DNA of 64,000 bases. It comes from Escherichia coli. Its GTDB lineage: Bacteria; Pseudomonadota; Gammaproteobacteria; Enterobacterales; Enterobacteriaceae. Of this stretch, positions 17,420 to 52,489 are shown one piece after another. The notes under the pieces were generated by a model. That model was not told the origin of the DNA, did not search any database, and saw nothing but the letters and a program-made list of their open reading frames with translations. The DNA is taken from NCBI RefSeq assembly GCF_016026235.1, contig NZ_CP065613.1; one strand, 5' to 3'. The translations under genes were made by a program, and so were the position numbers. Within the stretch, counting starts at the first letter, position 1. Each line of letters begins with the position of its first letter.

Positions 17420-18692
17420 ACCGACTCCTGATTCAAATGTATGATGGTATTCATTGAACAGAACAATGGATCCCCCACCGTTGCTGACCGCAAAACATTT
17501 ACGCGATTAATACTGCGCGTAATATAATTAAAAATCCAGCATTCTCAATCCATTACGAAATAAGATGGCATTACGGAATAGCCAGACTTTCTCGTGTTAA
17601 CGTCCGACAAAATGCGTCATTGACAGCGGTTTCTGTGGATTGACACATTTCATTCAGATAATGAATTAATGCTACTGCCGGAACAACCAGCAAACGGGCA
17701 TTGTGTTCTGAAATCCAGGCTATTGATTCAACGTCAGCGACAGATCTGCGCTGTAAAAGAACTTGTAAAACAACGTAATAGAATTATCCGGAATGGTGGC
17801 GACTATGCACTAGAACACCACAATTTCGCTCTCTCGGTAAGGCACTGTCACAGCATTCAACAGAATGTGACTTGCCAGATTTATTAGCGCCACCAGATGT
17901 TTAACCGGGTAACCACGACCCAGTCGGGGATATATTCCATCTTCTCGCTGACATCATCAAGAATAAAAAGGTTTATCACACTCAGAGCAACGTTCTTCAG
18001 CAGGCGGGATAATTCTTCAACATTTAAAAGATGTGTTATTAAAGGCATACAAACTGGACGTATTGTATTTTCTTTTGGTGGTTGACCTAAGGTAGCAGTT
18101 TATCCTGATGCGCTGAGATTTCTGTAATATCTACGTCAACATTCTCCTCGAATAGAAAATGCAGCCCCGGCAAGTGATTCACATTTTTTAACAAAACGTT
18201 GTTAGCGTGCCATTTTCAGAAGCTCTCCAAGAAAGCGAATTCTTTTCTCAAATTCTGCATTCTCAGACACAGCTTTCTACTCCATGGCAATGGCCCAAAT
18301 ACGAAGTTGCTCAGGATCATTAGTGGTGCTGAGAAGTTAAATAACCATGCGGAGTACCACTCGTCATCACGTATTTATATATCATGAAGCTATTGTTGTG
18401 TTTTGTACATCAGTAGATGTATTCTGATATACTCCTTTTGCTAGACATAACCTTTCACCTGCTTGCAAAGCTTCTGTGTTCTGACATTGCCAAATTGTTG
18501 CAATTCTGTATCCAGCCTTCTTTCAGTCATAGCTTCGGGCCGCGATAAGACTCACTGATCTGACCCTGATTCCTCTTGCAGACTTTATAGACCAATTAAA
18601 ATGCAGTTTCTGCAGGTCAACGTCTGACCATCATTGTCATCACTCTGGCCATTAGAGTAACCTTCTGCATTCATCCTTTTGTAAAAAGTTTA

Positions 18693-19335
18693 TAGACTGG
18701 CCCCCTGAATCTCCAGACAACCAATATCACTTAAATAAGTGATAGTCCTGATACAAGTTTTTAGAGTAGTCATTAGTGAACAGATAATTGTTAACTTAGA
18801 ACCAGTAAAATGCAAACGACGCACCACGCTGGGAAAATCGCTGCTATTCAGCAGAGTTTTGTACCGAGAATTGTGGCCAGCCACTTATTGCTCTCGCGTA
18901 AGCAGGTATCCCTATCGTTTACCAGTCCAGCACATCTTGTGGTCAGGCAGAAGAAGAGCAAACTGTTACTGGACTCACTGCATGCATGGTGGAGAAAAAT
19001 GCCACGCTATCCAAAAATCCAGACTGGGAGAATGGTTCAGCTGTGTACTGAATCAGTGGGGCGCACTCTGTTATTACAGTGTTGACGGTCAGGCGGAGGC
19101 AGACATAATGCCGCGGAAAAAGCCCTTTGTGCCATCTGTCTCGGAAATAAAAACTTTATGTTCTTCGGCGGCGAGCGCAGTGCACTGTTGTATGGGCTTA
19201 TCGGCACTTGCCTTCTGAACGACATTGATCCGGAAGCGTATCTGCGCCATATCCTGAGCGTACTGCCGGAATAACCTTCCAACCGTATTGATGAACTCCT
19301 GCCATGGAACGTAGCACTCACCAATAAATAAGCGT
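18693..19335 (+). mobile_element. Composite IS relic: IS2-type left end with decayed orfA, followed by the C-terminal fragment of an IS66-family TnpC
   Basis: 18693-18747 is identical to the first ~55 bp of the IS2 left end at 27064, then diverges. At 19150-19330 the translation KNFMFFGGERSALLYGLIGTCLLNDIDPEAYLRHILSVLPE ... DELLPWNVALTNK matches the conserved IS66 TnpC C-terminus. No intact ORF. Confidence 0.5.
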
Positions 19336-19360
19336 CAATACGGCACTCCGTTAACGCTGA

Positions 19361-20871
19361 TATGACTTTCCGTGTCAAACCGGAATCTCTAATTTTGACG
19401 ATTTTCTTTTTAGGTTTAATTCCCTGAGGGCGACGTAGCAGTAAATCCGACGGTGAATCACGCTGATATTCGCGGGTTGGATACCGCATTACAGAGGTCC
19501 GTCATATGAGCCTGCCACTTTCTTACGTCGCGAATCAGCTTTGTTCCGCCGTCGCCAAGCGCTAACGTGGGTTACTCTTGTACCGGGCTACGTCGCCTTC
19601 AGGGAACTGGTTATTCTCATTTTTTATTTGTGACATTGTGGTTGTTGTGCGACAGACATTGCTATTCGGCCCATATCCCAGATAAAACCCGCCAGCTCAC
19701 GTGCAACAGCAACAATTGTAATATTGACATTCTTTCCTTTGGCCTGAAGTTTTCGATACCTCTTACAAAGCCTGAGTTGAGCATCCCATGCTCTGTCAAT
19801 GACGGGGCGGGGTAAATTTTCCTGCCTTTTTGTATTGCCGGACTGATGCGTGCCGGATGACGGTAACTCCACGCTGCCTCGACCAATAGCTTTCTGGCAT
19901 AGCTGTTTCCGGCTTTGGTAATGCTGCCCTGATGTCTGCTTCCACCCGATGAATATTCTGATGGCGTGATACCAAACCATGACATCAGTTGTCGTGGATG
20001 TTCAAAACGGGTCAGATCACCCAGTTCAGAAATTAATCCAACCGCAGTAATAAACTGAATCCCTCGCATGGCTTGCAGCGCCTCTACTACCGGATACAGC
20101 CTCCATTCGGTAACGGCCTCCTTCAGGGCGGATTCCAGCCGTTCACATTGTGCCTGCCGGTCTTCTATTGTACGACGGTGTTCGTCAAAAGCTAATTGTC
20201 GCCAGGGACTTTCGAATGAGTATTTGCTGAGCCAGCGTCGGTGTGCAGGGCCCCAATCTGCTCGCCCGACATAATGGACCCCATGAACCAGAAGAAACGA
20301 TTTCAGACGTTGCCTTGCATGCCGTAAATCATCGCGGGCAGATGCCCATGCCCGGGCCAAATCCCGGAATGCCTCATCTTCAATGCCGGGTACGTAGACA
20401 GCAGAAAGATCTCCTGCACGCAGTGAACGCACAAGTCTGATGGCATCACGGCGATCGGTTTTAACCCGCTCCCCCGGTTTTTTCGGGATAAGTGAGGGGG
20501 CGCAGACCATGCAGTCAAAACCGGATTTCACCAGCCGACGATAAAGTCCATAACCACAGGGCCCCGCTTCATAAACGATACTGACCTGCGATGACTTTGA
20601 CCTGAGACGTTTACAAAGATTCTGAATATCAGTAGGTGATGTGCCAATTTTACCCATCAGTTCAACAGGTTCTGAATTGATAGCATAAGCGACAGTAATC
20701 GATTCTTTGTGAACATCTAACCCGACGTACAATGTGTTATTGTTGTTCATGCTGGCCTCCGTGGTGGAAATACCGGGGTGTAGCAACAGCTCACCCATGC
20801 GGCTCTGACAACGATGTTAACCCGCGTTAAATATCCCACGTTGGCCAGCATCTGTCTCACGGAAAGTCATA
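19361..20871 (-). mobile_element. IS110/IS1111-family insertion sequence (about 1.5 kb) bounded by 14-bp inverted repeats
   Basis: Perfect inverted repeat TATGACTTTCCGTG at 19361-19374 and its reverse complement CACGGAAAGTCATA at 20858-20871 enclose a single transposase gene plus about 290 bp of non-coding sequence on its 3' side. Confidence 0.6.
19662..20750 (-). CDS. IS110-family (DEDD-type) transposase/recombinase
   Basis: Product MNNNNTLYVGLDVHKESI... has the N-terminal DEDD/RuvC-like domain and the C-terminal transposase_20-type domain (…FGITPSEYSSGGSRHQGSITKAGNSYARKLLVEAAW…). Confidence 0.8.
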   Translation of the reverse strand: MNNNNTLYVGLDVHKESITVAYAINSEPVELMGKIGTSPTDIQNLCKRLRSKSSQVSIVYEAGPCGYGLYRRLVKSGFDCMVCAPSLIPKKPGERVKTDRRDAIRLVRSLRAGDLSAVYVPGIEDEAFRDLARAWASARDDLRHARQRLKSFLLVHGVHYVGRADWGPAHRRWLSKYSFESPWRQLAFDEHRRTIEDRQAQCERLESALKEAVTEWRLYPVVEALQAMRGIQFITAVGLISELGDLTRFEHPRQLMSWFGITPSEYSSGGSRHQGSITKAGNSYARKLLVEAAWSYRHPARISPAIQKGRKIYPAPSLTEHGMLNSGFVRGIENFRPKERMSILQLLLLHVSWRVLSGIWAE

Positions 20872-20988
20872 CTGCCTTACCTTTTCTCAGGCTATTTTTG
20901 CTTTTTTTTGCTTTTCCCCGCCACTTTATGGTGATTATCACATCAATATACATCGATAGATATTAACGTAACTGAAGTGAGGTGAAGC

Positions 20989-22203
20989 ATGAAATTTGAA
21001 CGCCATCATGAAATATTGAAACGACTCAGTAAATTCGGTTCTGTAAAAGTATCCGATCTGTCCAATAGCCTCAATGTAACGAAAGAAACTATTCGTTCAG
21101 ATCTTAATGAACTTGCCAGGCTTGGCTATCTGACTCGATGTCATGGCGGTGCTTTTATCGTCCTAGACTCGCTTGATACTATTGCGAAAAATGAAATCGC
21201 TTATGCGCTTGAAAATTATGATACAGCCCAGGGAATAAAAAAAGGCCACTCAACTATGAAAAGTCAAGTATGCGTTATTGGTTCGTTTAATGTTGATATC
21301 ATCAGTTATTTGCCGAGGCTTCCCACTATCGGAGAATCGCTTCTGGCAAGTAATTTTATATTTTCACCGGGGGGAAAAGGCTGTAACCAGGCGCTGGCAG
21401 CAAGCTTTGCCGATACTGATGTTTATTTCATAACAAAAGTAGGTACAGATCACTTTAGTGATTATGCGATCAACTTTATGAATTCGTCTAAGATTTATAA
21501 AAGTATAATTTATCAAACGAAAGAAACGCAAACCGGAACTGCCACGATCCTTGTTAATGAAGGTACTGGCGATAATGTTATTGCGATCTATCCCGGTGCC
21601 AACATGACAATGTCGTCCGATGAAATAACTATTCAGAAAGAAGCGATTATTAATTCTGATGTCATACTTCTGCAGCTCGAAACAAATTATACCGCTCTGC
21701 AACAAGCGATCACATTGGCGCAAAAAAACAGTATCCCGGTCATTATTAACCCGGCACCCTATAATGATATCGTCAACGAACTTATTCAGGATGTTGATTA
21801 TATCACCCCCAATGAAACAGAAGCTGGTTTACTGTCCGGCATAGACGTACACGATCTTGAATCAGCTAAACGAGCTGCAGAAGCTATCCACAATAAAGGG
21901 GTAAAAAACACGGTTATCACGCTCGGTAGCAAGGGCTCGCTCGCATTTGATGGCAAAAAATTCATTCATTCGCCAGCGTTTCCAGCGGTCGTTAAAAATA
22001 CGGCAGGAGCCGGGGATGCGTTTAACGGCTCTCTGGCATCAGGACTTGCGAAAGGAAAATCACTGGAATCAGCACTGTGTTATGCCAGCGCCTTTGCATC
22101 CCTAGCGGTGGAGACAAGCAATGCTTCCGACATGCCTGAACATGAATCTGTGATACATCGAATTCAGAGTATACATTATCAGCAAACTATTTTTACGCAT
22201 TAA
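20989..22203 (+). CDS. Fusion protein: N-terminal DeoR-type HTH domain plus PfkB/ribokinase-family carbohydrate kinase
   Basis: Single 404-codon ORF. Residues 1-60 look like a DeoR HTH (VKVSDLSNSLNVTKETIRSDLNELARLGYLTR). The remainder carries both PfkB signatures (GGKGCNQA and AGAGDAFNG). Confidence 0.7.
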   Translation: MKFERHHEILKRLSKFGSVKVSDLSNSLNVTKETIRSDLNELARLGYLTRCHGGAFIVLDSLDTIAKNEIAYALENYDTAQGIKKGHSTMKSQVCVIGSFNVDIISYLPRLPTIGESLLASNFIFSPGGKGCNQALAASFADTDVYFITKVGTDHFSDYAINFMNSSKIYKSIIYQTKETQTGTATILVNEGTGDNVIAIYPGANMTMSSDEITIQKEAIINSDVILLQLETNYTALQQAITLAQKNSIPVIINPAPYNDIVNELIQDVDYITPNETEAGLLSGIDVHDLESAKRAAEAIHNKGVKNTVITLGSKGSLAFDGKKFIHSPAFPAVVKNTAGAGDAFNGSLASGLAKGKSLESALCYASAFASLAVETSNASDMPEHESVIHRIQSIHYQQTIFTH

Positions 22204-22216
22204 GAAGGGACAGAGA

Positions 22217-22975
22217 ATGAATAACACCAAAAAATCACTAAAAGTGCTCTTTATTGGGGAATCCTGGCATATTCATATGATTCATTCAAAAGGATATGAC
22301 AGTTTTACCTCAAGTAAATATGAAGAAGGTGCGACCTGGTTACTCCAGTGTCTGAAAAATAGTCAGGTAGATGTCACCTATATGCCAGCACATACGGTAC
22401 AAATTGCCTTCCCTGAAGATGTGGCACAGTTAGAACAATATGATGCCATCGTTATTAGTGATATTGGTAGTAATACTTTCCTGCTACAAAATGATACTTT
22501 TTATCAGCTTCGCATAAAACCAAACGCTCTCGAACTGATTAAAGAATATGTGAATAACGGTGGTGGGTTATTGATGATTGGCGGCTATCTCTCATTCATG
22601 GGAATTGAAGCAAAAGCCAATTATAAAAATACAGTTCTGGCTGATGTGCTCCCGGTTACGATGTTAGATGGTGACGATCGTGTCGAAAAACCAGAGGGTG
22701 TTATTGCACAGCCATCACAACCTGAACATCCAGTTATTAAAGGGTTCTCTGAATATCCTTTTTTCCTAGGTTATAACCGGGCGATCGCTAAAGAAAATGC
22801 TGAGGTGGTATTAACAATAAACAACGCTCCATTACTGGTCTTTGGTAACTATCACAACGGGAAAATAGCCTGCTTTATGAGTGACTGTTCACCGCACTGG
22901 GGTACACAGCAGTTTATGTCCTGGCCGTTCTATACCGCGTTGTGGGTAAATATACTGACTCATATTGCAAGATAA
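22217..22975 (+). CDS. Hypothetical protein (possible class-I glutamine-amidotransferase-like / ThuA-like fold)
   Basis: 252-aa ORF 14 bp downstream of the kinase gene. Fold assignment comes only from the overall pattern (VLFIGESWH..., NGGGLLMIGGY) and is weak. Confidence 0.35.
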   Translation: MNNTKKSLKVLFIGESWHIHMIHSKGYDSFTSSKYEEGATWLLQCLKNSQVDVTYMPAHTVQIAFPEDVAQLEQYDAIVISDIGSNTFLLQNDTFYQLRIKPNALELIKEYVNNGGGLLMIGGYLSFMGIEAKANYKNTVLADVLPVTMLDGDDRVEKPEGVIAQPSQPEHPVIKGFSEYPFFLGYNRAIAKENAEVVLTINNAPLLVFGNYHNGKIACFMSDCSPHWGTQQFMSWPFYTALWVNILTHIAR

Positions 22976-23031
22976 TAATAATAATGGGGTAACTCCAGTT
23001 ACTCCATTTACTATAATAGAAGGATTGATGT

Positions 23032-23997
23032 ATGAAAAAGAATAAGTACTCAACTCCCTTATGGATGCTTGCCACGATTCTTGCGGGTATGCTCTCCCCT
23101 ATGCAATCAGCGGTGAATGGTCAATTAGGTCACTGGTTACAGGATGGTAATGCATGCGCAGTTATCTCCTTTGCCAGTGGTTTAGTCGTGATGTTTTTTA
23201 TTATTATGGCGCGAAAAGAAACCCGGCAACAATTTGCGGCAATTCCTTCTCTGATTAAAAACCGAAAAGTTCCTCTCTGGAACTGGTTTGCCGGTCTCTG
23301 TGGAGCGATGGTGGTATTTTCTGAAGGCGCATCAGCCAGCGCACTCGGGGTCGCAACGTTTCAAACCGCACTGATCTCCGCGCTATTGCTGTCTGGTTTA
23401 CTTTGCGATCGCTTTGGTATCGGTGTCGACGAGAAAAAATACTTTACCCCTTATCGCATCATCGGTGCATTATTTGCGGTTATTGCTACGATTTTTGTTG
23501 TGTCACCTCAGTGGCATTCTACCTCTTTCATCTTACTTGCCATTCTTCCGTTCTTAGCTGGTTTGCTTGCAGGATGGCAGCCCGCTGGAAATGCAAAAGT
23601 AGCTGAAGCTACGGGATCCATGCTGGTTTCAATCACCTAGAATTTCATCGTTGGATTTTGTGTTTTAGGCACAGCGCTAGCTATTCGTGTCGCATTAGGG
23701 CACGTCACTGTTCAATTACCAGATGTCTGGTGGATGTATCTTGGCGGCCCGCTTGGACTAATGTCTATCGGTTTAATGGCCATTTTGGTCAGAGGTCTGG
23801 GGTTACTGATGCTGGGGGTTGCTTCAACGGCGGGCCAGTTACTGGGATCAGTATTGATTGACGTATTAATTCCATCGCTGGGCAATAGCGTTTATCTGGT
23901 CACGATCATCGGAACACTGTTTGCACTGGTCGGTGCAATTGTTACCACTATTCCGGAATACAGAACCTCGAAAACAATGAAGAAAATGGAGGTATAA
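23032..23997 (+). pseudogene. DMT-superfamily (tandem DUF606 / YdcZ-like) inner-membrane transporter interrupted by an in-frame amber codon
   Basis: ORFs 23032-23640 and 23734-23997 are in the same frame. The intervening codons read on as membrane-protein sequence (...NFIVGFCVLGTALAIRVALGHVTVQLPDVWW-MYLGGPLGLMSIGL...) once TAG at 23638-23640 is read through. Confidence 0.55.
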
Positions 23998-23999
23998 TC

Positions 24000-25034
24000 A
24001 TGAAAGATTATCTACAAACTGTGACGGGCCCCGTCGCCCGTGAAGATATGGGGCTAACACTTCCTCATGAACATCTGTTCAACGATCTTTCCTCTGTTGT
24101 GGATGCTCCTTGCTATCCTTTTTCACAACGGCTTGTTGATAAAAAAGTCACGGCAGAAATCCAGTGGGCATTAAAACACGATCCTTATTGCTGCGCTGAT
24201 AATATGGACCGCAAACCTATTGAAGATGTGATCTTCGAAATTAATAACTTTATCTCGCTCGGTGGTCGCACCATTGTTGATGCCACAGGGTCTGAGTCTA
24301 TCGGACGAGATGCGCAGGCATTACGAGAAGTCGCATTAAAAACAGGTCTGAATATTGTTGCTTCCTCCGGTCCCTACCTGGAAAAATTTGAAAGCCAGAG
24401 AATTCATAAAACGGTTGATGAACTGGCGACAACGATCGATAAAGAATTGAATCAAGGGATTGGCGATACGGATATTCGTGCCGGAATGATCGGTGAAATA
24501 GGTGTTTCACCGACATTTACCGAAGCCGAGCATAACAGCTTGCGGGCTGCCTCGCTGGCACAGATTAACAATCCTCATGTGGCGATGAATATTCACATGC
24601 CGGGCTGGCTTCGTCGCGGTGATGAAGTACTCGACATTGTGTTAGGTGAAATGGGCGTCTCGCCAAATAAAGTCTCTCTCGCACACTCGGATCCGTCAGG
24701 AAAAGACGTGGCGTATCAGCGGAAAATGCTTGATAGAGGTGTCTGGCTGGAATTCGACATGATTGGCCTAGACATTACCTTCCCGAAAGAGGGAATAGCG
24801 CCAGGGGTGCAGGAGACTGCCGATGCCGTCGCTCATCTCATTGAGTTGGGATACGCCGATCAGCTTGTTCTCAGCCACGATGTCTTCCTTAAACAAATGT
24901 GGGCTAAAAATGGCGGTAATGGCTGGGGATTTGTTCCAGATGTTTTTCTGGCCTATCTGGCGGAGCGCGGCGTCGATAAAACGATCCTCAAAAAACTCTG
25001 TATCGATAATCCCGGACGATTATTGACCGCATAA
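24000..25034 (+). CDS. Phosphotriesterase-family (PTE/Php-like) metal-dependent hydrolase
   Basis: 344-aa product with the N-terminal metal-binding motif TLPHEHL and overall amidohydrolase/PTE layout. Confidence 0.75.
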   Translation: MKDYLQTVTGPVAREDMGLTLPHEHLFNDLSSVVDAPCYPFSQRLVDKKVTAEIQWALKHDPYCCADNMDRKPIEDVIFEINNFISLGGRTIVDATGSESIGRDAQALREVALKTGLNIVASSGPYLEKFESQRIHKTVDELATTIDKELNQGIGDTDIRAGMIGEIGVSPTFTEAEHNSLRAASLAQINNPHVAMNIHMPGWLRRGDEVLDIVLGEMGVSPNKVSLAHSDPSGKDVAYQRKMLDRGVWLEFDMIGLDITFPKEGIAPGVQETADAVAHLIELGYADQLVLSHDVFLKQMWAKNGGNGWGFVPDVFLAYLAERGVDKTILKKLCIDNPGRLLTA

Positions 25035-25043
25035 AACCATTAT

Positions 25044-25066
25044 CCCCCGGCACATTGCGCCGGGGG
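25044..25066. terminator. Bidirectional terminator between the PTE-like gene and the ggt remnant
   Basis: Perfect hairpin cccccggcacattgcgccggggg. Confidence 0.45.
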
Positions 25067-25073
25067 ATGTCAA

Positions 25074-25410
25074 TTAATACCCCGCCGTTAAATCATCCAC
25101 CAAGCGCGAGTCGGATGCGCCGTACAACTCACCATCCGACCCAACCATAATGCTTTGCGTGCTGCCCAACACCTCATTCAGCGCCACTTTCTGACCTTTT
25201 GCTTCCAGCAGCTTGAGCGTATCCGGACTAACCCCTTTTCAACACGCAGCTCGTCCGGCAACCACTGATGGTGGAAACGAGGCGTATTGGTCGCTTCGGC
25301 AACATTCATTCCACAATTGATGCTGTTCACCACCATTTGCAGCACGGTAGTGATGATCCAGCTACCGGTAACAAAGTGAGTACATAAAGGCCATACTGTC
25401 ACGAACAGTG
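25074..25410 (-). pseudogene. 3' remnant of a gamma-glutamyltranspeptidase paralogue, truncated by the ISL3 element
   Basis: Minus-strand translation gives the GGT C-terminus ...IITTVLQMVVNSINCGMNVAEATNTPRFHHQWLPDELRVEKG and ...ALNEVLGSTQSIMVGSDGELYGASDSRLVDDLTAGY with one frameshift. It ends at the ISL3 inverted repeat at 25411. Confidence 0.55.
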
Positions 25411-25685
25411 CAAAAGTGGCTCTTCCGCAACCTAGGTGAAGATTTTCATGCCAGTGGACTCATTACCCTCCGCCTAAGTAGTTCAAGTCCGGCTCGACCA
25501 TACATCTGGCGTATCAGCACCTTCAGGCGATTTACATGACCTTCGACAACACCAGTACTCCAGCGACTGCTGATTGCCTCACGTATAGCCGCAGCATCAG
25601 CTTCCATCCCCGCAGCTACGCACCGAAGTTCTGCTGAGCCGCTTTCGTGGACCCGAGTGAACCAGCTGCTTAGCTGTGATTTATT

Positions 25686-27063: not shown

Positions 27064-27155
27064 TTAGACTGGCCCCCTGAATCTCCAGACAACCAATATC
27101 ACTTAAATAAGTGATAGTCTTAATACTAGTTTTTAGACTAGTCATTGGAGAGCAG

Positions 27156-43251: not shown

Positions 43252-44001
43252 TCACTGATCTCCTTCGGTCAACGGAGATTGTATTTTCCGCATTGATTCT
43301 CCTTTAAGTTCAATCTTGATACTGCCATGAACCAGTCGATCTAGGATGGCATCCGCATGTGTGGAGTCTCCGATCATTTTGTACCAGTTTTCCACCGGCA
43401 ACTGGCTCACTACGATGATTGAGCCTCGTTGGTACATCAGATCCACTATTTCCAGCAGGTCGCTACGCTGTTCTGATGAGAGAGGTTCCAGCCCCCAGTC
43501 ATCCAGAAGCAGCAGATCGCTATTATTCAGCCTAGTCAAAAGTTTGCTGTATCTTCCATCAGCATGCCCCTGATAGCACTGTTCCATCAGCGCTTTAAGG
43601 CGATAATAGTAGACCTTGTATCCCTGTCGGCAGGCATTATGACCAAGTGCACATGCCAGGAACGTTTTACCGCTGCCGGTGGCCCCGGTCAGTAAAATAT
43701 TTTGTTTCAGGGTTAACCAGTTTCCCTGACTGAGTGAACGGATGAGGGCCCTGTCCAGCCCTCTATTGTTACGATAATCCAGCTTTGATAACTCAGCATT
43801 AAGTCTGAACCGTGCATGTTTGATCAGACGCTCTGCCTTCCTGTTTTCACGGCAGGTTAGTTCTTCTGCTGTCAGTAATGACAGGCGTTCTTCGAAGCCC
43901 AGCTCCTGGTATGTGCCCGGCTGAGCAAGTTGCTTTTTAAGCGCATCACGGAAGCCGGTGAGTTTAAGTGCGGTCAGTTGTTCGTAAAGATGATTCATCA
44001 T
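43252..44001 (-). CDS. istB: IS21-family helper ATPase IstB
   Basis: Walker A GATGSGKT; 249 aa. Confidence 0.8.
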   Translation of the reverse strand: MMNHLYEQLTALKLTGFRDALKKQLAQPGTYQELGFEERLSLLTAEELTCRENRKAERLIKHARFRLNAELSKLDYRNNRGLDRALIRSLSQGNWLTLKQNILLTGATGSGKTFLACALGHNACRQGYKVYYYRLKALMEQCYQGHADGRYSKLLTRLNNSDLLLLDDWGLEPLSSEQRSDLLEIVDLMYQRGSIIVVSQLPVENWYKMIGDSTHADAILDRLVHGSIKIELKGESMRKIQSPLTEGDQ

Positions 44002-44012
44002 TGGATCCCGTA

Positions 44013-45533
44013 TCAGTGGTAATACTCACTGCCGCGTACGTTTTCGTGTTCCATCGTGGATAACAGATCTGGTTTTGGATCCTGAACAGGTTGTTTATCC
44101 AGACCTTTTTCCAGGATCGATTTAATACCTGACAGACGCCATACCTTTGTTTTCAGAGCTCTTGCACATGCTGCATTAAGTCTGGCTTTACTGTATTTTT
44201 TATGAAGGTTCAGGAGTCCAAGGCAGAAGCGATAGCTTTGTTCCGGATGTGGACGAGAGTTCAGTATATGAAGCACATAACTATGAGTTTCACTGCCTAT
44301 GTGCCCCGCCCATTCCAGAAGACGCTCTGGCGTCCAGGTGGCATGCTGTCGATGAGCTTCAGGCATGTGCTCGTTGCGGGTACTGTAGCCATAAGTACGC
44401 TTGCGCGGGTGCACAGCAACCTCCTGCCCCTGATTGAAGAGTCTTACCAGTTCTCCGGAGATCCATGCTTCCAGTTGCTGGCCTAACAGCGAACATGGAA
44501 CCGAGTAGTAATGTTTGTCGATTTCCACGTGGTAATCGGCATGAACTCTGACTTTCTTCACCAGGGTGTAACTGTAACTGGCTTCAGGAAGAGGCTTCAG
44601 TGCGGGTTTATCAAGCTGGATGAAGAGTTCTGCACGTGAATAACCCAACTTCTGCATTATTTTGTTATTCAGTCTTTCCAGCAACTCCCGAATGCGCTGA
44701 TTAAGCGATGCAAGGCTGTAGAAGATCTCATGCCTGATTCGGGCCATGATCCAGCGTTCAACAACCTGAACGCCAACTTCAGCTTTGGCTTTATCTTTCG
44801 GTTTACGTGGCCGCGCAGGCAAAACTGCGACATTATAATGCTCAAGCATCTGCTGGTAGGTAGGGTTAACGTCAGGATCATACTTACATGCCCTGGATGT
44901 GGCGCTTTTCAGATTGTCCGGAACAACAAGTTCAGGAACGCCACCCAACCACTGGAAGCAGCGAACATGACTCATCACCCAGTCTTCAAGCTGCTGAGAC
45001 CAGGTGGCCTCTGCCCATGTGTAACTTGATGCCCCGAGAACAGCTACGATGACCTGAGCAGTTCTTATTTCTCCGGTCTCAGGGTCGGTAACGCCAACGG
45101 TAGGTCCACAGTAATCAACGAAAAGTTTTTCGCCAGCTTTATGTACCTGACGCATTGATGGTGAAGTGGTTTTGAGCCATTCACGGTACATCCGGCAGTA
45201 ATGGTTATAGCTGTAAAAACCGCCTGGATTACGCTCACAGTATTCTTCCCAGAGTAGCTGCAGCGTCACGCATTTATTACGCAGTTCCCAGTGTACTGTA
45301 GCCCAGTCAGGCAGAGAGTGCTTCTTCATCTTAACCTGGGTCTGAAGGAACGCATGTTTTAGTTTTGTATCATCCCATCCTGTAGGTAAGGGCCACTGCT
45401 TTATGCCAAGTTGAGCCGCCCGATTAGCATATCTGGATACAACGGAAGGGGAGATTGCAAGACTACGACCAATTTGTCGATGGCTGAGTCCAACACCGTA
45501 TTTAAGCCTAAGAATTTCTTTAAGTTTTCTCAT
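44013..45533 (-). CDS. istA: IS21-family transposase IstA
   Basis: HTH plus DDE domain; about 50% similar to the IstA of copy 1. Confidence 0.8.
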   Translation of the reverse strand: MRKLKEILRLKYGVGLSHRQIGRSLAISPSVVSRYANRAAQLGIKQWPLPTGWDDTKLKHAFLQTQVKMKKHSLPDWATVHWELRNKCVTLQLLWEEYCERNPGGFYSYNHYCRMYREWLKTTSPSMRQVHKAGEKLFVDYCGPTVGVTDPETGEIRTAQVIVAVLGASSYTWAEATWSQQLEDWVMSHVRCFQWLGGVPELVVPDNLKSATSRACKYDPDVNPTYQQMLEHYNVAVLPARPRKPKDKAKAEVGVQVVERWIMARIRHEIFYSLASLNQRIRELLERLNNKIMQKLGYSRAELFIQLDKPALKPLPEASYSYTLVKKVRVHADYHVEIDKHYYSVPCSLLGQQLEAWISGELVRLFNQGQEVAVHPRKRTYGYSTRNEHMPEAHRQHATWTPERLLEWAGHIGSETHSYVLHILNSRPHPEQSYRFCLGLLNLHKKYSKARLNAACARALKTKVWRLSGIKSILEKGLDKQPVQDPKPDLLSTMEHENVRGSEYYH

Positions 45534-46724
45534 AGAAATTGGAACTGTTGGCATAGGTATCCTTTACCGGAATGGCAAAAGATACAGATCAACACACCTG
45601 TGAAGTTCCAATAACATTGATGGAGATCACTGAATAACAAAATGAGTCAAAAGTGATCTCCATCGATGTTATTCAGCGATCTGTTCAAATGTTATTACCC
45701 GATCTCGATGGAAGTTATTGAGTGATCTCCTTTCATGAAAATACGCACTATGACCGGATTCTGGCAGGCTCCCGCAGCCATCAGACCGGTGTAAACGGTG
45801 AAAATAACAGCGTCCGTCTCAGCATTCAGGGCGGTCATCTCGGTCACGATAACAACGGCGGTATTGCCCGTGGAGCCACGCCGGAAAGCAGCGGCAGCTA
45901 TGGCTTCGTCCGTCTGGAGGGTGACCTGCTGAGAACAGAGGTTGCCGGTATGTCTCTGACGACAGGGGTGTATGGTGCCGCAGGCCATTCTTCCGTTGAT
46001 GTTAAGGATGATGACGGTTCCCGCGCCGGCACGGTCCGGGATGATGCCGGCAGCCTGGGCGGATACCTGAATCTGACACACACGTCCTCCGGCCTGTGGG
46101 CTGACATTGTGGCACAGGGAACCCGCCACAGCATGAAAGCGTCATCGGACAATAACGACTTCCGCGCCCGGGGCTGGGGCTGGCTGGGCTCACTGGAAAC
46201 CGGTCTGCCCTTCAGTATCACTGACAACCTGATGCTGGAGCCACAACTGCAGTACACCTGGCAGGGGCTCTCCCTGGATGACGGCCAGGATAACGCCGGT
46301 TATGTGAAGTTCGGGCATGGCAGTACACAACATGTGCGTGCCGGTTTCCGTCTGGGCAGCCACAACGATATGACCTTTGGTGAAGGCACCTCATCCCGTG
46401 ACACCCTGCGCGACAGTACAAAACACGGTGTGAGTGAACTGCCTGTGAACTGGTGGGTACAGCCTTCTGTTATCCGCACTTTCAGCTCCCGGGGTGACAT
46501 GAGCATGGGTACAGCCGCCGCCGGCAGTAACATGACGTTCTCACCGTCCCGGAATGGCACGTCACTGGACCTGCAGGCCGGACTGGAAGCCCGTGTCCGG
46601 GAAAATATCACCCTGGGCGTTCAGGCCGGTTATGCCCACAGCGTCAGCGGCAGCAGCGCTGAAGGTTATAACGGTCAGGCCACGCTGAATGTGACTTTCT
46701 GATAATCAGGTCACTCTCCTTCAG

Positions 46725-46751: not shown

Positions 46752-47085
46752 TACTTTCAGGGAGCAACAGATATGCCGGGTTGTACATCACGTTTATTGC
46801 CCGAAGGCCCTTTCTCACGCGAACAGGCTGTTGCCGTCAAAACAGCTTACCGCAATGTGTTTACTGAAGATGACTAGGGAACATATTCCCGGCTGGTTAT
46901 CCGTAATGCTGAAGGTCAGTTGCGCTGGTGATGCCGGAACACAGCTTAATACTCAGCTCGCCAGTTAAGGGCTTCTCAGACAATAAACGTCATTCATTTC
47001 ATCTGTCAGGCCGCGTCTTCTCCGGGAGACGTGGCTTTTTCATTTATTACACCAGTAAATCTTAACCACCGATAAGGAGCAAATT

Positions 47086-47904
47086 ATGCGACTAGCCAGT
47101 CGTTTTGGTTATACGAACCAGATACGCCGTGACCGTCCGCTGACACACGAAGAACTGATGCACTATGTTCCCAGTATTTTCGGTGAAGACCGGCATACTT
47201 CCCGCAGTAAACGATATGCGTACATTCCCACCATCACCGTACTGGAAAGCCTGCAGCGGGAAGGCTTTCAGCCATTCTTCGCCTGCCAGACCCGTGTGCG
47301 CGACCCGGGCCGCCGGGGATACACAAAACATATGCTGCGTCTGCGGCGGGCCGGAGAGATAAACGGAGAACATGTCCCTGAAATCATTCTGCTCAACTCC
47401 CATGACGGTACCTCCAGCTACCAGATGCTGCCGGGTTACTTCAGGTTCGTCTGTCAGAACGGATGCGTCTGTGGTCAGTCTCTGGGGGAAGTGCGTGTTC
47501 CGCACCGGGGAAATGTGGTGGAGAAAGTTATCGAAGGGGCTTACGAGGTGGTGGGCGTGTTTGACCGGATAGAGGAGAAGCGTGATGCCATGCAGTCGCT
47601 GGTCCTGCCGCCACCGGCACGCCAGGCGCTGGCACAGGCGGCACTGACTTACCGTTATGGTGACGAACATCAGCCCGTCACCACCGCCGACATTCTGACG
47701 CCACGACGCCGGGAGGATTACGGTAAGGACCTGTGGAGTGCTTATCAGACCATCCAGGAGAATATGCTGAAAGGCGGGATTTCCGGTCGCAGTGCAAAAG
47801 GAAAACGTATCCATACCCGGGCCATTCACAGCATTGATACCGACATTAAGCTCAATCGCGCATTGTGGGTGATGGCAGAAACGATGCTGGAGAGCCTGCG
47901 CTGA
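47086..47904 (+). CDS. DUF932-family protein (YfjQ/YafZ-like)
   Basis: 272-aa product MRLASRFGYTNQIRRDRPLTHEELMHYVPSIFGEDRHTSRS...; recognised from memory as the CP4-type DUF932 family. Confidence 0.65.
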   Translation: MRLASRFGYTNQIRRDRPLTHEELMHYVPSIFGEDRHTSRSKRYAYIPTITVLESLQREGFQPFFACQTRVRDPGRRGYTKHMLRLRRAGEINGEHVPEIILLNSHDGTSSYQMLPGYFRFVCQNGCVCGQSLGEVRVPHRGNVVEKVIEGAYEVVGVFDRIEEKRDAMQSLVLPPPARQALAQAALTYRYGDEHQPVTTADILTPRRREDYGKDLWSAYQTIQENMLKGGISGRSAKGKRIHTRAIHSIDTDIKLNRALWVMAETMLESLR

Positions 47905-47985
47905 TGCCGTTTCCCTGAGTGAGGGAATCATTCAGCTTTCGTTCCTGAAAAACACACATTTATTTGTTATTTAAGGAGTTATCTC

Positions 47986-48465
47986 ATGAAAAGCGTTTCT
48001 CAGAATACCCCCACAATTTATTCAGCTACAACACCAGAGAATAATCCGCCTCAGTTTGTTGCCAGCCTCGTCCCTGATGAACAGCGCATCAGCTTCTGGC
48101 CGCAGCACTTTGGCCTCATTCCACAGTGGGTGACCCTGGAGCCCCGTGTCTTCGGCTGGATGGACCGTCTGTGCGAAGACTACTGCGGTGGTATCTGGAA
48201 TCTGTACACCCTGAACAACGGCGGGGCATTTATGGCACCCGAACCGGATGACGATGATGACGAAACATGGGTACTGTTCAATGCCATGAACGGTAACCGC
48301 GCTGAAATGAGCCCGGAAGCCGCCGGTATTGCCGCCTGTCTGATGACGTACAGTCATCATGCCTGTCGTATGGAGAATTATGCCATGACGGTCCATTATT
48401 ACCGGTTGCGGGATTACGCCCTGCAGCATCCGGAATGCAGCGCCATTATGCGCATCATCGACTGA
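47986..48465 (+). CDS. Antirestriction protein (KlcA/ArdB-like, YfjX/YafX family)
   Basis: 159-aa acidic protein (…APEPDDDDDETWVLFNAMNG…) in the position and of the size typical for CP4 antirestriction proteins. Confidence 0.6.
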   Translation: MKSVSQNTPTIYSATTPENNPPQFVASLVPDEQRISFWPQHFGLIPQWVTLEPRVFGWMDRLCEDYCGGIWNLYTLNNGGAFMAPEPDDDDDETWVLFNAMNGNRAEMSPEAAGIAACLMTYSHHACRMENYAMTVHYYRLRDYALQHPECSAIMRIID

Positions 48466-48480
48466 ATGGAGAGAAGCACA

Positions 48481-48957
48481 ATGCAACAACTTTCCTTTCT
48501 GCCCGGAGAGATGACGCCCGGCGAGCGCAGCCTCATTCAACGGGCCCTGAAAACCCTGGACCGCCATCTTCATGAACCCGGCGTGGCCTTCACCTCCACC
48601 CGGGCGGCACGGGAATGGCTGATTCTGAACATGGCGGGACTGGAGCGTGAAGAGTTCCGGGTGCTGTATCTGAACAACCAGAATCAGCTGATTGCCGGTG
48701 AAACCCTCTTCACCGGCACCATCAACCGCACGGAAGTCCATCCCCGGGAAGTGATTAAACGCGCCCTGTACCACAATGCCGCTGCCGTGGTACTGGCACA
48801 CAATCACCCGTCCGGTGAAGTCACACCCAGTAAGGCAGACCGGCTTATCACCGAACGTCTGGTACAGGCACTGGGCCTGGTGGATATCCGGGTGCCGGAC
48901 CATCTGATAGTCGGTGGCAACCAGGTTTTCTCCTTTGCCGAACATGGTCTGCTTTAA
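48481..48957 (+). CDS. yeeS: RadC-like JAB-domain protein
   Basis: JAMM-like motif HNHPSGEVTPSKAD and RadC-family layout. Confidence 0.75.
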   Translation: MQQLSFLPGEMTPGERSLIQRALKTLDRHLHEPGVAFTSTRAAREWLILNMAGLEREEFRVLYLNNQNQLIAGETLFTGTINRTEVHPREVIKRALYHNAAAVVLAHNHPSGEVTPSKADRLITERLVQALGLVDIRVPDHLIVGGNQVFSFAEHGLL

Positions 48958-49019
48958 CCCGTCACAACCACATCACACCTGTTTTCACTTTTATCTTCTG
49001 TCTTCAGAGGTATCCCATT

Positions 49020-49241
49020 ATGAAAATTATCACCCGTGGTGAAGCCATGCGTATTCACCAACAACATCCGACATCCCGTCTTTTTCCGTTCTGTACCGGC
49101 AAATACCGCTGGCACGGCAGTGCTGAAGCGTATACCGGTCGTGAAGTGCAGGATATTCCCGGTGTGCTGGCCGTGTTTGCAGAACGCCGTAAGGACAGTT
49201 TTGGTCCGTATGTCCGGCTGATGAGCGTCACCCTGAACTGA
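49020..49241 (+). CDS. yeeT: DUF987 protein YeeT
   Basis: 73-aa product MKIITRGEAMRIHQQHPTSRLFPFCTGKYRWHG...; recognised as YeeT. Confidence 0.8.
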   Translation: MKIITRGEAMRIHQQHPTSRLFPFCTGKYRWHGSAEAYTGREVQDIPGVLAVFAERRKDSFGPYVRLMSVTLN

Positions 49242-49403
49242 TGTTCCGTCACCCGGAAAACGAGTACGACTGGCTGAGCTCAGACGCCGCTGTGGATGAG
49301 GTCCTGCTCATCAACGAATACACCTTTACCGAAGCCGGTCTGCGCGCCGGCTGACCCGTCATCGTTAAACTATCATTCACCGATTTTCTGTGAGGATTTT
49401 ATC

Positions 49404-49772
49404 GTGTCAGACACACTTTCCGGGACAACGCATCCCGATGACAATGACGACCATCCCTGGTGGGGACTACCCTGCACAGTGACGCCCTGTTTCGGCGCCC
49501 GTCTGGTGCAGGAGGGTAACCGGTTGCATTACCTTGCCGACCGTGCCGGTATCAGAGGCCGGTTCAGAGATGCGGATGCGTACCCTCTGGACCAGGCCTT
49601 TCCGCTGCTGATGAAACAACTGAAATTAATGCTCACCAGTGGTGAACTGAATCCCCGCCATCAGCATACCGTGACACTGTATGCGAAGGGGCTGACCTGT
49701 GAAGCCGACACCCTCGGCTCCTGTGGTTACGTTTATCTGGCTGTTTATCCGACACCTGAAACGAAAAAGTAA
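49404..49772 (+). CDS. cbeA: Type IV antitoxin CbeA (YeeU)
   Basis: 122-aa product with GTG start (VSDTLSGTTHPDDNDDHPWWGLPCTVTPCFGARLVQEGNRLHYLADRAG...). Confidence 0.85.
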   Translation: MSDTLSGTTHPDDNDDHPWWGLPCTVTPCFGARLVQEGNRLHYLADRAGIRGRFRDADAYPLDQAFPLLMKQLKLMLTSGELNPRHQHTVTLYAKGLTCEADTLGSCGYVYLAVYPTPETKK

Positions 49773-49861
49773 ACCACCAGAATAACCTTCTGCTCCGGCC
49801 TGGTGTTTTCACCACGCCACTGTCCCATTTTTTATCTCTGCATATCAGGAAAATCTTCAGT

Positions 49862-50239
49862 ATGAAAACATTACCCGACACGCATGTACGGGAGGTATCG
49901 TGCTGCCCGTCTCTCGTCACCATCTGGCAGACACTGCTCACCCGACTGCTGGACCAGCACTACGGCCTTACGCTGAATGACACACCGTTCGCTGATGAAC
50001 GTGTGATTGAACAGCATATTGAGGCAGGCATTTCACTGTGTGACGCGGTGAACTTTCTCGTTGTAAAATACGCGCTGGTACGTACCGACCAGTCGGGATT
50101 CAGCGCCTGTACCCACTCTCAGTTAATAAACAGCATCGATATCCTCCGAGCTCGCCGGGCAACAGGCCTGATGACCCGCGACAATTACAGAACGGTAAAT
50201 AACATTACCCTGGGGAAGCATCCGGAGGCGAAACGATGA
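49862..50239 (+). CDS. cbtA: Type IV toxin CbtA (YeeV), cytoskeleton-targeting
   Basis: 125-aa product MKTLPDTHVREVSCCPSLVTIWQTLLTRLLDQHYGLTLNDTPF... Confidence 0.85.
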   Translation: MKTLPDTHVREVSCCPSLVTIWQTLLTRLLDQHYGLTLNDTPFADERVIEQHIEAGISLCDAVNFLVVKYALVRTDQSGFSACTHSQLINSIDILRARRATGLMTRDNYRTVNNITLGKHPEAKR

Positions 50240-50439
50240 AACTGGCCCTGACGCTGGAAGCCGACAGCGTTAACGTGCAGGCGCTGAACATGGGGCGCAT
50301 TGTCGTTGACGTCGATGGTGTTAATCTCGCTGAACTGATTAACAAGGTCGCTGAAAACGGTGATTCACTCCGCGTGGTGGATGAACGTGACTCTACCGAA
50401 ACACCGGCAACTTATGCCAGCCCTCACCAGTTGCTGTAA
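50236..50439 (+). CDS. yeeW: Small CP4-type protein YeeW
   Basis: 67-aa ORF overlapping the cbtA stop by 4 nt (ATGA). Confidence 0.7.
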   Translation: MKLALTLEADSVNVQALNMGRIVVDVDGVNLAELINKVAENGDSLRVVDERDSTETPATYASPHQLL

Positions 50440-50713
50440 GACAATGCAGTGATACAGGGTATAGTGCCATTAACCACAGAAACAGCACTGTTGTCCTGTA
50501 TTAAGCAGGCAAGAGAAGATGTCCTTACCCTGCGCCATCTGCAGCTTCTGCACCAGAACCAGTGAATCTCACTCAACAGGCTTCATTTCCCCTGACGCCA
50601 GCCTGAATACAGCTGGCGTTTTCATTTATAAACAGAAAGGAAAACCGATAATAATGGAATGGACGCCCCTACCATGAAGCAACGGTAGGATATTACTGAT
50701 AAACCTTCCAGTG

Positions 50714-51752
50714 GAGGTGCGTTATGGCCGTTTTAACGATTAGCATTGACCTGACAAAAAATGAATTCCAAATCCACGGTCTGGGTAGGAACAGAAAAAT
50801 CTAAGCTCAGAAAACGGATTAAACGTTCCCTGATGCCCGTATTCTTCGCGAATATGTCTTCCTGTCGGATTGGGATGGAGGTCTGCGCCGGAGCGCGTCA
50901 TTAGTGAGAATGCTGTCTACTTAGGGGCATAATGTCAGACTAATGCCCGCGATTTGTAAAGCCATATGTGAAAACAAACAAGAATGATATGGCTGCTGCC
51001 GAGGCCATCTGTGAAGCCGTTACCCGACCTAATATGCGGTTTGTCAGCATCAAGACGCCTGAGCAGTAGTCATTACTGTCTTTTCATCGTGCCCAAACGG
51101 GATTTGTTAAATCAAGGACTGCGCAGATAAACCAGATCAGAGGATTACTGGCTGAATTTGGCATCGTTCTCCCGCCCGACATTGTAGCATTCAGTCGTCA
51201 TGTCCCTGCCCTGCTTGAAGACGCGGAAAACTGTTTAACAATGCCGTTCAGACAGCTGTCGTCCTATCTCTAATGAAAATGTGTAACAACTGAGCGTACA
51301 CATTGAAACCATAGAAGCCGTGAGCAACGAACACGTCGGGAACGACGAACTGTGCAGGAAAATTGCCACCATTTCGGGGATTGCTATTCTTACCACCACT
51401 GCAATTGTCAGCACCGGGTAGTATCGGCTTCAAAAACCGGCGTCAGCTTGCTGCATGGCTTGGACTGGTTCCCCGACAGTGCTTCAGCGTAGGTAAAAAC
51501 ACGCTGGGGTCTATCAGTAAACAGGACGATGTCTATATCAGAACGCTACTGTTCCATGGTGCGAAGACAGTGTCAAACGCCAGAAAGGGCAGACAGGTCC
51601 AGGAAAGTTGGCTGGGCAGACCAGTCTCGCGGCGGAATAAAAATGTTGCCACCGTAGCGCTGAACAACAAAAATGCCAGAGTGCTCTGGGTATTGCTAAC
51701 CAACGATAAAGAGATTTCACCAGAAGAAGTGATGGTAGCTGCATATATGTAA
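50714..51752 (+). pseudogene. Degraded IS110-family transposase (yoeD-like remnant)
   Basis: N-terminal stub MAVLTISIDLTKNEFQIHGLG and C-terminal segment ...RQLAAWLGLVPRQCFSVGKNTLGSISKQDDVYIRTLLFHGAKTV..., separated by frameshifts and stops. Confidence 0.6.
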
Positions 51753-52189
51753 ATGAAACTACTTCTGTCTGTTGAAAAATAAAACCAACCTACTGATTGC
51801 TAAGGATAAACAAGTATTAAAGGCCAGACTGATAAGACCGCGACTAAGTGAACCTGTATCTGACATTGCATAGCTTCGCTAATGTGTCAATCATGATTAG
51901 GACTAAATCTGTGAATTCCTTTAGGAAGCACGGACACAGGCCAATCTGAGTCCATATGTATGATTGGAATCTTACACAGATGACTTTTTGACACGGGGAC
52001 TTGGCAAACAGGGGCGACCATGTATGTCAGATATGACAATCTCACTTCCGAAAGAAGTCAACGGGCACGTTATCTGTTCAACCAGAATCCGACACATTCT
52101 GGCTATACGAAAGAGCATACTTATGCAAATCTATATGCTTTTCCGGCAACAAGCAGGAATCTCAGCGCTGAGGCAGGAATTAGAGGTAA

Positions 52190-52389
52190 AAACGCCCTAC
52201 CGGGCCATGAATCACCCGGTCATTGGAGTAGTAACCAAAGCAGATTTAGCCAGCATGGAACACATATCTTTGGTGAAATGTTGGTTACGGGAAGCTGGAG
52301 CGCACAACGTGTTAGTAACCAGTGCGGTTAATAACAATGGAGTTACAGAACTTTTTGCCTTGCTGCATACAGAAGAAGGCTGTTGCTAA
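52190..52389 (+). pseudogene. Remnant resembling the C-terminus of a EutP/PduV-type GTPase (yoeF-like)
   Basis: Translation PVIGVVTKADLASMEHISLVKCWLREAGAHNVLVTSAVNNNGVTELFAL; no intact N-terminal part. Confidence 0.35.
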
Positions 52390-52489
52390 TTTCGATAGGT
52401 TCTCAGATGAGAATGATGACGGTGATACACAGATAAGAATCAATGAGCAATGAGGGTTGCCGGGCAACCCTCATTGAATAAAACAGGAA

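Follow-up and report, generated by a model that had tools for sequence, protein, structure and literature searches.

A strain-specific, integrase-less allele of the CP4-44 island in the cobU-tmaR interval of Escherichia coli

The DNA lying between cobU and tmaR (yeeX) in a 64-kb stretch of the Escherichia coli chromosome (contig NZ_CP065613.1; the whole stretch is referred to as the window) holds an island of 34.5 kb. With a probability of roughly 0.85, we take this interval to be one strain-specific allele of the species-wide CP4-44 island, and the fixed remnant, incapable of excision, of a P4-type (intP4/AlpA-class) genomic island. No recombinase gene, att repeats or tRNA target accompanies it; hence the island cannot move by site-specific recombination. 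Its P4-type origin we infer from backbone homology, because the same flu and yee modules lie distal to intP4, alongside AlpA and YagK/YfjJ genes, in GI-pheV-like islands, and in CP4-57. An earlier note on this DNA, made from the sequence alone, had described an immobilised integrative element eroded by insertion sequences (ISs). This description is supported by the lack of an integrase, att-like repeat or tRNA fragment and by an IS share of 41%, the word "integrative" deriving from backbone homology.

Results

Boundaries of the island

The window runs from the yeeJ/shiA region through asnW, asnU, asnV, ldtA, cobTSU, the island, tmaR (yeeX), yeeA, sbmC, dacD, sbcB and plaP to the his leader. 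The island was delimited against strain Z1323HEC0423, one of the pdu+ E. coli that keep the ancestral order: next to cobU a remnant of cbi, then a cobalamin riboswitch, pocR, pduF, pduA-V and tmaR. In BLAST alignments, homology between this strain and the window ends at 17715 and resumes at 52207, which places the island at 17716-52206. It stands in place of 17.5 kb of Z1323HEC0423 (segment positions 20826-38363) comprising the B12 riboswitch, pocR, pduF and pduA to mid-pduV, of which stubs of cbiP and pduV remain; the right boundary, 52207, corresponds to PduV residue 87. By this comparison, the island replaces pdu-region DNA rather than sitting between intact neighbours. The interval 17420-52489, proposed as the island in the earlier note, is too wide in that it includes the two stubs. 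The left edge cuts through an IS4-family transposase gene, of which an internal fragment remains (model positions 133-191 of 332); this edge is therefore a truncation, not the terminus of an element. The features that define the locus are as follows (amino acids, aa; Prokaryotic Genome Annotation Pipeline, PGAP):

16874-17419, minus strand: cobU, left flanking gene
17556-17715, minus strand: cbiP' stub, chromosomal flank outside the island and last cbi operon remnant beside cobU; 77% to residues 90-145 of a 145-aa cbi-derived protein of Z1323HEC0423 (tblastn); named "cobalamin biosynthesis protein, incomplete" by PGAP in a close relative
17716-52206, no strand: island proper, CP4-44-type allele, 34,491 bp
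17912-18692, no strand: AT-rich left arm (yoeG region and DNA just beyond), shared with K-12, whose IS5H site is empty here; 99.7% to K-12 segment positions 9355-10239 and 99% to UTI89 (BLAST)
52005-52206, no strand: terminal island segment of unassigned nature, the last 71 bp in common with K-12
52207-52389, plus strand: pduV' stub (K-12 yoeF), chromosomal flank outside the island; 95% to PduV residues 87-146 (tblastn), with a TIGR02528 match
52490-52885, minus strand: tmaR/yeeX, right flanking gene

Literature searches on the cbiP'/pduV' flanks of CP4-44 and on yoeF, yeeH, yoeG and yoeD returned nothing relevant.

Absence of a recombinase and of attachment sites

The window was searched over its 64 kb by tblastn with two P4-type integrases, two lambdoid integrases and one serine invertase, plus XisE (queries IntA of CP4-57, IntB, IntE, a lambdoid integrase, PinE and XisE). 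The best match had an E value of 0.09 and lay outside the island. Family scans of about 45 window open reading frames (ORFs) returned no integrase family, and the PGAP annotation of relatives 96-99.9% identical to the window lists no integrase or fragment of one, though short transposase pseudogenes are flagged there. These results uphold the earlier claim that no tyrosine or serine recombinase is present. The suggested search for an attL/attR pair was equally negative: neither a direct-repeat search over 17300-52600 nor self-BLAST found a repeat joining both island ends, yielding just the pair formed by IS2 and an IS3 relic and chance 14-26-mers. No 12-mer taken from asnW, asnU, asnV, leuX, a tRNA-Ser or the 3' portion of ssrA occurs in the island, and the pheV attR sequences known from the literature are missing too, with up to 3 mismatches allowed. 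The nearest tRNA gene, asnV (13915-13990), lies 3.7 kb away, behind the core genes ldtA-cobTSU. The three tRNA-Asn genes of the window, asnW, asnU and asnV (9683-13990), are classic island targets, and all three are unoccupied here.

Of the features of an intact P4-type island, the backbone genes are present, whereas the integrase at one end, the insertion at a tRNA/tmRNA 3' end and the flanking att repeats are not. If CP4-44 is defined by its locus, through junctions, backbone genes and lack of an integrase, the island displays every one of these features. CP4-44 of K-12 is itself devoid of an integrase, and its excision was not detected (PMC3105296). From a collection of 5,426 complete E. 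coli genomes, seven allele types were inspected. The same junctions are seen in K-12, UTI89, FDAARGOS_1257, O157:H7, NCTC9008 and 13P460A, and no integrase was found in the inspected alleles (K-12, NCTC9008, 13P460A, O157:H7 FRIK944, FDAARGOS_1257 and UTI89). The missing integrase is thus no difference from the reference. Since every inspected allele shares the junctions and has no integrase, the latter was probably lost, or the block placed by another route, before the alleles diverged.

Comparison with CP4-44 of K-12

In K-12 MG1655, CP4-44 (NC_000913.3, 2066020-2078748) measures 12.7 kb. By BLAST, about 6.5 kb of the island (19%) is collinear with it, in keeping with the earlier statement that the accessory content is unlike that of the reference. 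The collinear segments are 17716-18694 (main block at 99.7%), 18706-18908, yeeP, flu (75-93% identity), yeeS-yeeT (99%), cbeA-yeeW (91%) and the last 71 bp of the island. Across the left junction, window 9656-17813 and 17810-18694 align to K-12 at 98-99.7%, and the right junction aligns from 52136 at 98.4%. Window 18.9-40.3 kb is not in K-12 CP4-44 except for IS2.

The two islands are alike in their junctions (cbiP' stub and IS4 relic on the left, pduV'/yoeF on the right), in the left arm and in possessing yeeP, isrC, flu, yeeS, yeeT, cbeA, cbtA and yeeW. K-12 lacks the rikA cassette, the block of zinc-ribbon, YagK/YfjJ, Hha and AlpA genes, DUF932 and the antirestriction gene; conversely, it has yeeR, yoeA fragments, IS5H, an IS2 copy (IS2F) at another site and an intact flu, whereas the window is without yeeR and yoeA. 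At the right end, a 156-bp IS66-like relic (yoeD) in K-12 takes the place of the IS110 relic of the window. At segment positions 20435-20679, K-12 apparently retains about 85 bp of the left end of this IS110 relic (window 50739-50823) as well as the last 71 bp of the island (52136-52206), with the yoeD fragment between; for this reason the right end of the window looks older than that of K-12. CP4-44 of K-12 is a heavily deleted allele of a larger island found throughout the species.

Other alleles and their prevalence

All prevalence figures are BLAST coverage classes, not curated alleles. The left junction with the left arm (at least 80% covered) is found in 3,510 of the 5,426 genomes and the right end of the window (IS110 relic type) in 583; no genome is identical over the whole island. 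The backbone segment 33.3-38.9 kb is present in 4,335 genomes (80%), at a median of three places per genome.

The closest allele in the collection is that of NCTC9008 (NZ_LR134236.1), with about 96-99.9% identity across aligned blocks. It shares with the window the ISEc12 insertion in flu, the ISSso4-like IS21 element and the IS110 pseudogene element, but it is without the ISSso6-like element, the IS2 at 27065 and the ISEc60-like element in the GTPase gene. UTI89 and FDAARGOS_1257 carry a long form of 46-47 kb between identical junctions. This form has in common with the window the left arm, the IS66 relic, the rikA cassette with its gamma-glutamyltransferase (ggt) fragment, the ISL3 pseudogene, the zinc-ribbon pair, the YagK/YfjJ, Hha and AlpA genes and the yee module, at 92-99% identity. 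Relative to the long form, the window lacks 9.2 kb that include the yoeA TonB receptor, ibrBA-like genes and a PIG-L/glycosyltransferase/acetyltransferase/YaiO cluster. At window position 18693, the outer end of the IS3-like relic, the alignment to UTI89 skips from 2592 to 11830; being flush with this end, the loss bears the signature of an IS-adjacent deletion. In place of the yeeP-isrC-flu module of the window, the long form carries IS100, an ABC system for iron uptake and dynamin/RdcB/patatin genes. The window also has the ISSso6-like, IS2, ISSso4-like, IS110 pseudogene, ISEc60-like and ISEc12 elements, and it is without ISEc45 and ISEc20. UTI89 ends on the right in the same 156-bp IS66-like relic as K-12, in contrast to the IS110 relic of the window. 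O157:H7 FRIK944 holds a 15.7-kb form at these junctions.

In ATCC 8739, cobU is joined straight to pduV' (segment positions 4640-4780). We considered this allele as a clean empty site and rejected it: the deletion overshoots the island edges, ending 108 bp and 13 bp outside them (window 17607 and 52220), and yields no att site. That its endpoints lie so near the island edges suggests that the allele arose by secondary loss from an island-bearing one rather than by independent deletion of pdu DNA. In a spread sample of 50 rows from the search with the left junction, roughly 8 look pdu+ and roughly 4 resemble the cobU-pduV' empty configuration.

Insertion sequences

The earlier note had counted ten IS elements or relics from six families. 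The number of families stands; the number of elements rises to 11 (IS4, two; IS3, two; IS66, one; IS110, three; ISL3, one; IS21, two). Together they make up about 14.2 kb, or 41% of the island:

17716-17911, minus strand: IS4-family transposase internal fragment with a stop codon, forming the left island edge (NF033592, E 1.3e-5; PGAP on a close relative)
18693-18942, plus strand: IS3-family (IS2-like) terminal and orfA relic, 84% to the IS2 left end at 27065-27244 and 41% to IS2 OrfA residues 1-64 (tblastn)
18936-19358, plus strand: IS66-family TnpC C-terminal relic, 45-64% to ISEc8, ISCro1 and another TnpC (tblastn, E 1e-18 to 1e-26; PGAP)
19359-20875, minus strand: ISSso6-like IS110-family element, intact, 378-aa transposase (NF033542, 246 bits), duplicated CT at its flanks; site empty in NCTC9008
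25446-27064, minus strand: ISL3-family transposase pseudogene (NF033550 on both ORF pieces; PGAP)
27065-28395, plus strand: IS2, 1331 bp, orfA and orfB intact (NF006928 and NF006918, 276 and 704 bits), inverted repeats, 5-bp duplication CCCAT; site empty in NCTC9008
28420-31011, minus strand: ISSso4-like IS21-family element, istA and istB intact (NF033546, 287 bits; NF038214, 250 bits), 7-bp duplication CTTAGAT; junction checked against uninterrupted UTI89 sequence
31705-32869, plus strand: IS110-family pseudogene element at the overlap of the two zinc-ribbon genes (NF033542 on two ORF pieces), CT core duplicated, junction determined against UTI89
38907-40198, minus strand: ISEc60-like IS4-family element (PGAP name; NF033591 on both ORF pieces), in-frame stop in the transposase, 18-bp inverted repeats, 12-bp duplication GGGGAGGTCACC
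43167-45746, minus strand: ISEc12 (IS21 family; PGAP name), istA and istB intact, duplication of about 7 bp, ACTATGA
50739-52004, plus strand: IS110-family relic with frameshifts and stops (NF033542 on the ORF 51363-51749; PGAP), its extent taken from a copy elsewhere

Six elements (ISSso6-like, IS2, ISSso4-like, the IS110 pseudogene, ISEc60-like and ISEc12) keep a target duplication beside sequence that is uninterrupted in relatives. The IS protein queries had no tblastn match outside the island, and the annotation of close relatives has no IS gene in the flanks that they cover (window ~1-17.4 kb and 52.2-57.6 kb). Both datable IS110-family insertions have duplicated CT (19357-19358/20874-20877 and 31703-31704/32868-32869). 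The ISSso6-like element, which owes its PGAP name to 99.9% copies elsewhere, has 13-bp subterminal inverted repeats (ATGACTTTCCGTG). The possibility that it and ISEc45 of UTI89 used one shared IS110 target was rejected, the two sites being about 200 bp apart. Copies covering at least 80% of the ISSso6-like element occur in just 40 of the complete E. coli genomes, and those covering at least 80% of the ISEc60-like element in just 14, one of which has 38 copies. Two of the three ISs at 19359-20875, 28420-31011 and 38907-40198 bear names derived from Shigella sonnei, ISSso4 and ISSso6.

Regulatory block and backbone genes

The remaining genes of the right-hand part of the island bear out what the earlier note had said of its content, namely a yeeP/flu/cbeA-cbtA backbone accompanied by YagK-like and alpA genes:

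31290-31694, minus strand: zinc-ribbon protein, 134 aa (PGAP)
32852-33256, minus strand: second zinc-ribbon protein, 134 aa (PGAP)
33416-34021, minus strand: YagK/YfjJ-family ("inovirus Gp2") protein (Pfam PF11726, YagK_YfjJ_C, E 1.8e-47; phrog_25019)
34731-34907, minus strand: Hha/YmoA-family protein (NF008191, E 2.5e-18)
35615-35821, plus strand: AlpA-family helix-turn-helix (HTH) regulator, 68 aa (Pfam PF05930, Phage_AlpA, E 5.7e-9), an orphan with no partner integrase
35901-38636, plus strand: conserved backbone hypotheticals, of 205 aa at 35901-36518 and 305 aa at 37719-38636
38721-40897, plus strand: yeeP-like GTPase gene, split by the ISEc60-like element into pieces 38721-38906 and 40211-40897
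41014-41250, plus strand: IsrC (Rfam IS102 RNA; RF00124, 76.7 bits), upstream of flu and overlapping its start
41194-46702, plus strand: flu (Ag43) gene, disrupted by ISEc12 into pieces 41194-43166 and 45747-46702 (NF033177, 1212 and 759 bits)
46773-50565, plus strand: yee module, from a DUF905 pseudogene to a DUF957 stub (PGAP)
47086-47904, plus strand: DUF932, open ORF (phrog_12094)
47986-48465, plus strand: antirestriction gene, open ORF (phrog_10132)
48481-48957, plus strand: yeeS/RadC-like gene, open ORF (RadC NF000642)
49020-49241, plus strand: yeeT, open ORF
49404-49772, plus strand: cbeA, open ORF
49862-50239, plus strand: cbtA, open ORF
50236-50439, plus strand: yeeW, open ORF

The GTPase gene is 97% identical to K-12 yeeP over 40345-40899, and in silico removal of the ISEc60-like element and one copy of the duplication restores an ORF of 290 aa. 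The halves of flu match NF033177 model positions 1-634 and 630-948, placing the break near codon 634; the ISEc12 insertion is also present in NCTC9008, whereas flu is intact in 13P460A. The yee module is 91-99% identical to that of K-12, apart from the missing yeeR. In addition to its family domain, the YagK/YfjJ-family protein weakly matches ORF2/G2P, a Pfam family associated with replication (E 3.8e-5).

Much of this block has counterparts elsewhere. In strain 98218, a second island holds the 33.4-50.4 kb stretch of the backbone at 96-99% identity, the backbone hypotheticals there being 99% identical. The latter two proteins (205 and 305 aa) have no matches in NCBIfam, PADLOC, PHROGs or Pfam. 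Cargo of the defence-system type was considered and rejected: PADLOC, run on ten unassigned or cargo proteins, gave no match to anti-phage defence at E <= 0.01, PHROGs returned backbone families of unassigned function plus the antirestriction protein, and Pfam nothing on the 305-aa protein. Islands of the intP4 type at tRNA genes (GI-pheV) and K-12 CP4-57 resemble the window in being IS-separated mosaics of modules with distal flu and yee modules and AlpA- and YagK/YfjJ-family genes; they also share the GTPase, the antirestriction gene, the RadC-like gene and a CbtA-type toxin-antitoxin pair. They differ in having a tRNA/tmRNA site, a P4-type integrase as first gene and, often, attL/attR repeats of 19-23 bp, none of which exists in the window.

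The rikA cassette

The cargo cassette reported in the earlier note was confirmed at 20989-25034. It comprises four metabolic genes, for an HTH-PfkB kinase, a glutamine amidotransferase, a DMT transporter and a phosphotriesterase-related protein, with a ggt fragment attached:

20989-22203, plus strand: rikA-like DeoR-HTH and PfkB ribokinase, 404 aa (TIGR02152, 284 bits, residues 94-387; AgaR-type HTH, residues 3-61)
22217-22975, plus strand: glutamine amidotransferase, STM3548 counterpart, intact in the window (PGAP)
23032-23997, plus strand: DMT-family transporter pseudogene, STM3549 counterpart, with an internal stop (ORFs of 202 and 87 aa)
24000-25034, plus strand: phosphotriesterase-related protein, STM3550 counterpart (NF007373, E 6e-31)
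25074-25366, minus strand: ggt fragment, with 2 stops in translation (PGAP)

PGAP calls the kinase gene rikA in some genomes. Recent work identified the corresponding protein of Salmonella, RikA (STM3547), as a ribokinase and noted conservation of the rikA cluster in Citrobacter, Escherichia, Budvicia and Proteus (PMC13432705). Compared at the level of predicted function and gene order, the window cassette is like rikA-STM3548-STM3549-STM3550 of Salmonella Typhimurium in all four functions and in their order, and both kinases are proteins of 404 aa with a DeoR-type N-terminal domain. Unlike the Salmonella cluster, the window copy lies inside a genomic island between IS relics, has the ggt fragment attached and carries a stop codon in the DMT gene. 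An internal stop is annotated by PGAP in this gene of a close relative too, and the gene is intact in FDAARGOS_1257. In NCTC9008, the amidotransferase gene contains an IS3-family element. Any match to the cassette is found in 2,777 of the 5,426 genomes (51%), and 1,908, including O104:H4 and ST131, have it at 80% coverage or more.

The cassette is bracketed by the IS66 and ISL3 relics, and its position between them suggests that it was gained by IS-mediated capture from a chromosomal context. The attached fragment hints that the source was another enterobacterial chromosome, from which the cassette would have been taken along with a neighbouring ggt gene. In every allele seen, the ggt fragment accompanies the rikA-type cassette.

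Other features of the window

Outside the island, tsuB-tsuA (yeeD-yeeE, about 1.5 kb in K-12) is missing between sbcB and plaP, replaced by window 57640-57712. This joint of about 73 bp, which includes a terminator-like hairpin, is a common polymorphism, being present in 1,212 of the 5,426 genomes.

Discussion

The data presented here are most readily explained if the cobU-tmaR interval is one allele of a CP4-44 island that lost the ability to excise. The island occupies the scar left by the ancestral cbi-pdu region. It would be inherited vertically, and lineages presumably exchange it through homologous recombination between the core genes on either side. Three processes alter what it contains. 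The first is IS insertion, two of the six duplication-bearing insertions inactivating flu and the yeeP-like GTPase gene. The second is IS-adjacent deletion, as in the 9.2-kb loss. The third is the swapping of modules with paralogous islands, as with the flu/yeeP module found in place of the ABC-iron/dynamin/patatin module of UTI89.

Several observations weigh against this interpretation. No inspected allele keeps an integrase, tRNA or att site at the locus, and no insertion signature is seen; with the left edge truncated inside an IS4 fragment, the original mechanism of insertion is not readable from the sequence. The GC content, moreover, varies from 41% to 57%, and the rikA cassette, with its ggt tag, seems to have been captured separately; because of these two features, the island may be the product of several successive steps and not of a single arrival. 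Taken further, the same observations lead to an alternative in which no integrase ever acted here: the interval would be a recombination and IS hotspot filled by independent acquisitions, namely a left arm with the TonB receptor, a rikA cassette captured by IS from another enterobacterial chromosome and a translocated piece of a P4-type island. The GC mosaic, the ggt fragment and the IS relics on either side of the cassette all fit this model, as do the chromosomal location of the STM3547-3550 cluster in Salmonella, Citrobacter and further genera and the lack of a tRNA, att site or integrase in any inspected allele, the left edge being a truncated IS4 fragment. However, copies in other islands keep the whole backbone order, from YagK/YfjJ and AlpA through the GTPase to cbtA and yeeW, and this collinearity favours arrival as one block. 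The two explanations also overlap, differing mainly in the order of events. We consider independent acquisition unlikely.

One could also imagine that the island is still mobile, with sibling islands supplying the P4-type integrases that excise or mobilise it in trans and its own AlpA-family protein serving as directionality factor. The alpA gene is intact, sibling backbones are common (a median of three copies per genome) and overproduction of AlpA is the method by which CP4-57 is excised in K-12 (PMC3105296). Yet the ends offer neither direct repeats nor tRNA-derived sequence on which an integrase could act, both edges are truncations, and excision of CP4-44 went undetected in K-12 (PMC3105296), all of which makes this hypothesis very improbable. 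As to the notion that the interval amounts to CP4-44 of K-12 plus a few more IS copies, the alignment of both ends, yeeP, flu and yeeS-yeeW to K-12 is far outweighed by a length of 34.5 kb against 12.7 kb, by collinearity over about 19%, by a stretch (18.9-40.3 kb) absent from K-12 apart from IS2, by the missing yeeR and yoeA and by flu at 75-93% identity, and the alignment to K-12 that the earlier note had called for refutes it.

Many genes of the island are likely to work. The cbtA/cbeA toxin-antitoxin pair, yeeS, yeeT and the antirestriction gene are probably functional, and so, probably, are the genes of the Hha, AlpA and YagK/YfjJ types, IsrC, the rikA cluster except for one of its four genes, and the four apparently intact IS elements. 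It is conceivable, albeit quite doubtful, that the AlpA-family regulator, an orphan here, acts in trans on P4-type integrases encoded by sibling islands, perhaps jointly with the YagK/YfjJ-family protein. Should this be true, a "dead" island without an integrase would still govern the excision of live ones.

The island is of an already known and very common type, in a strain-specific configuration: its modules are present in thousands of E. coli genomes, and what appears as "non-K-12" content when K-12 serves as reference is common E. coli content. Neither the kind of element nor any mechanism or gene family seen in it is new, and it matters little beyond annotation. What seems worth recording is that the K-12 allele is strongly deleted, that the island lies in the scar of a lost cbi-pdu region, and that dated IS insertions have knocked out flu and the yeeP-like GTPase gene in this strain.

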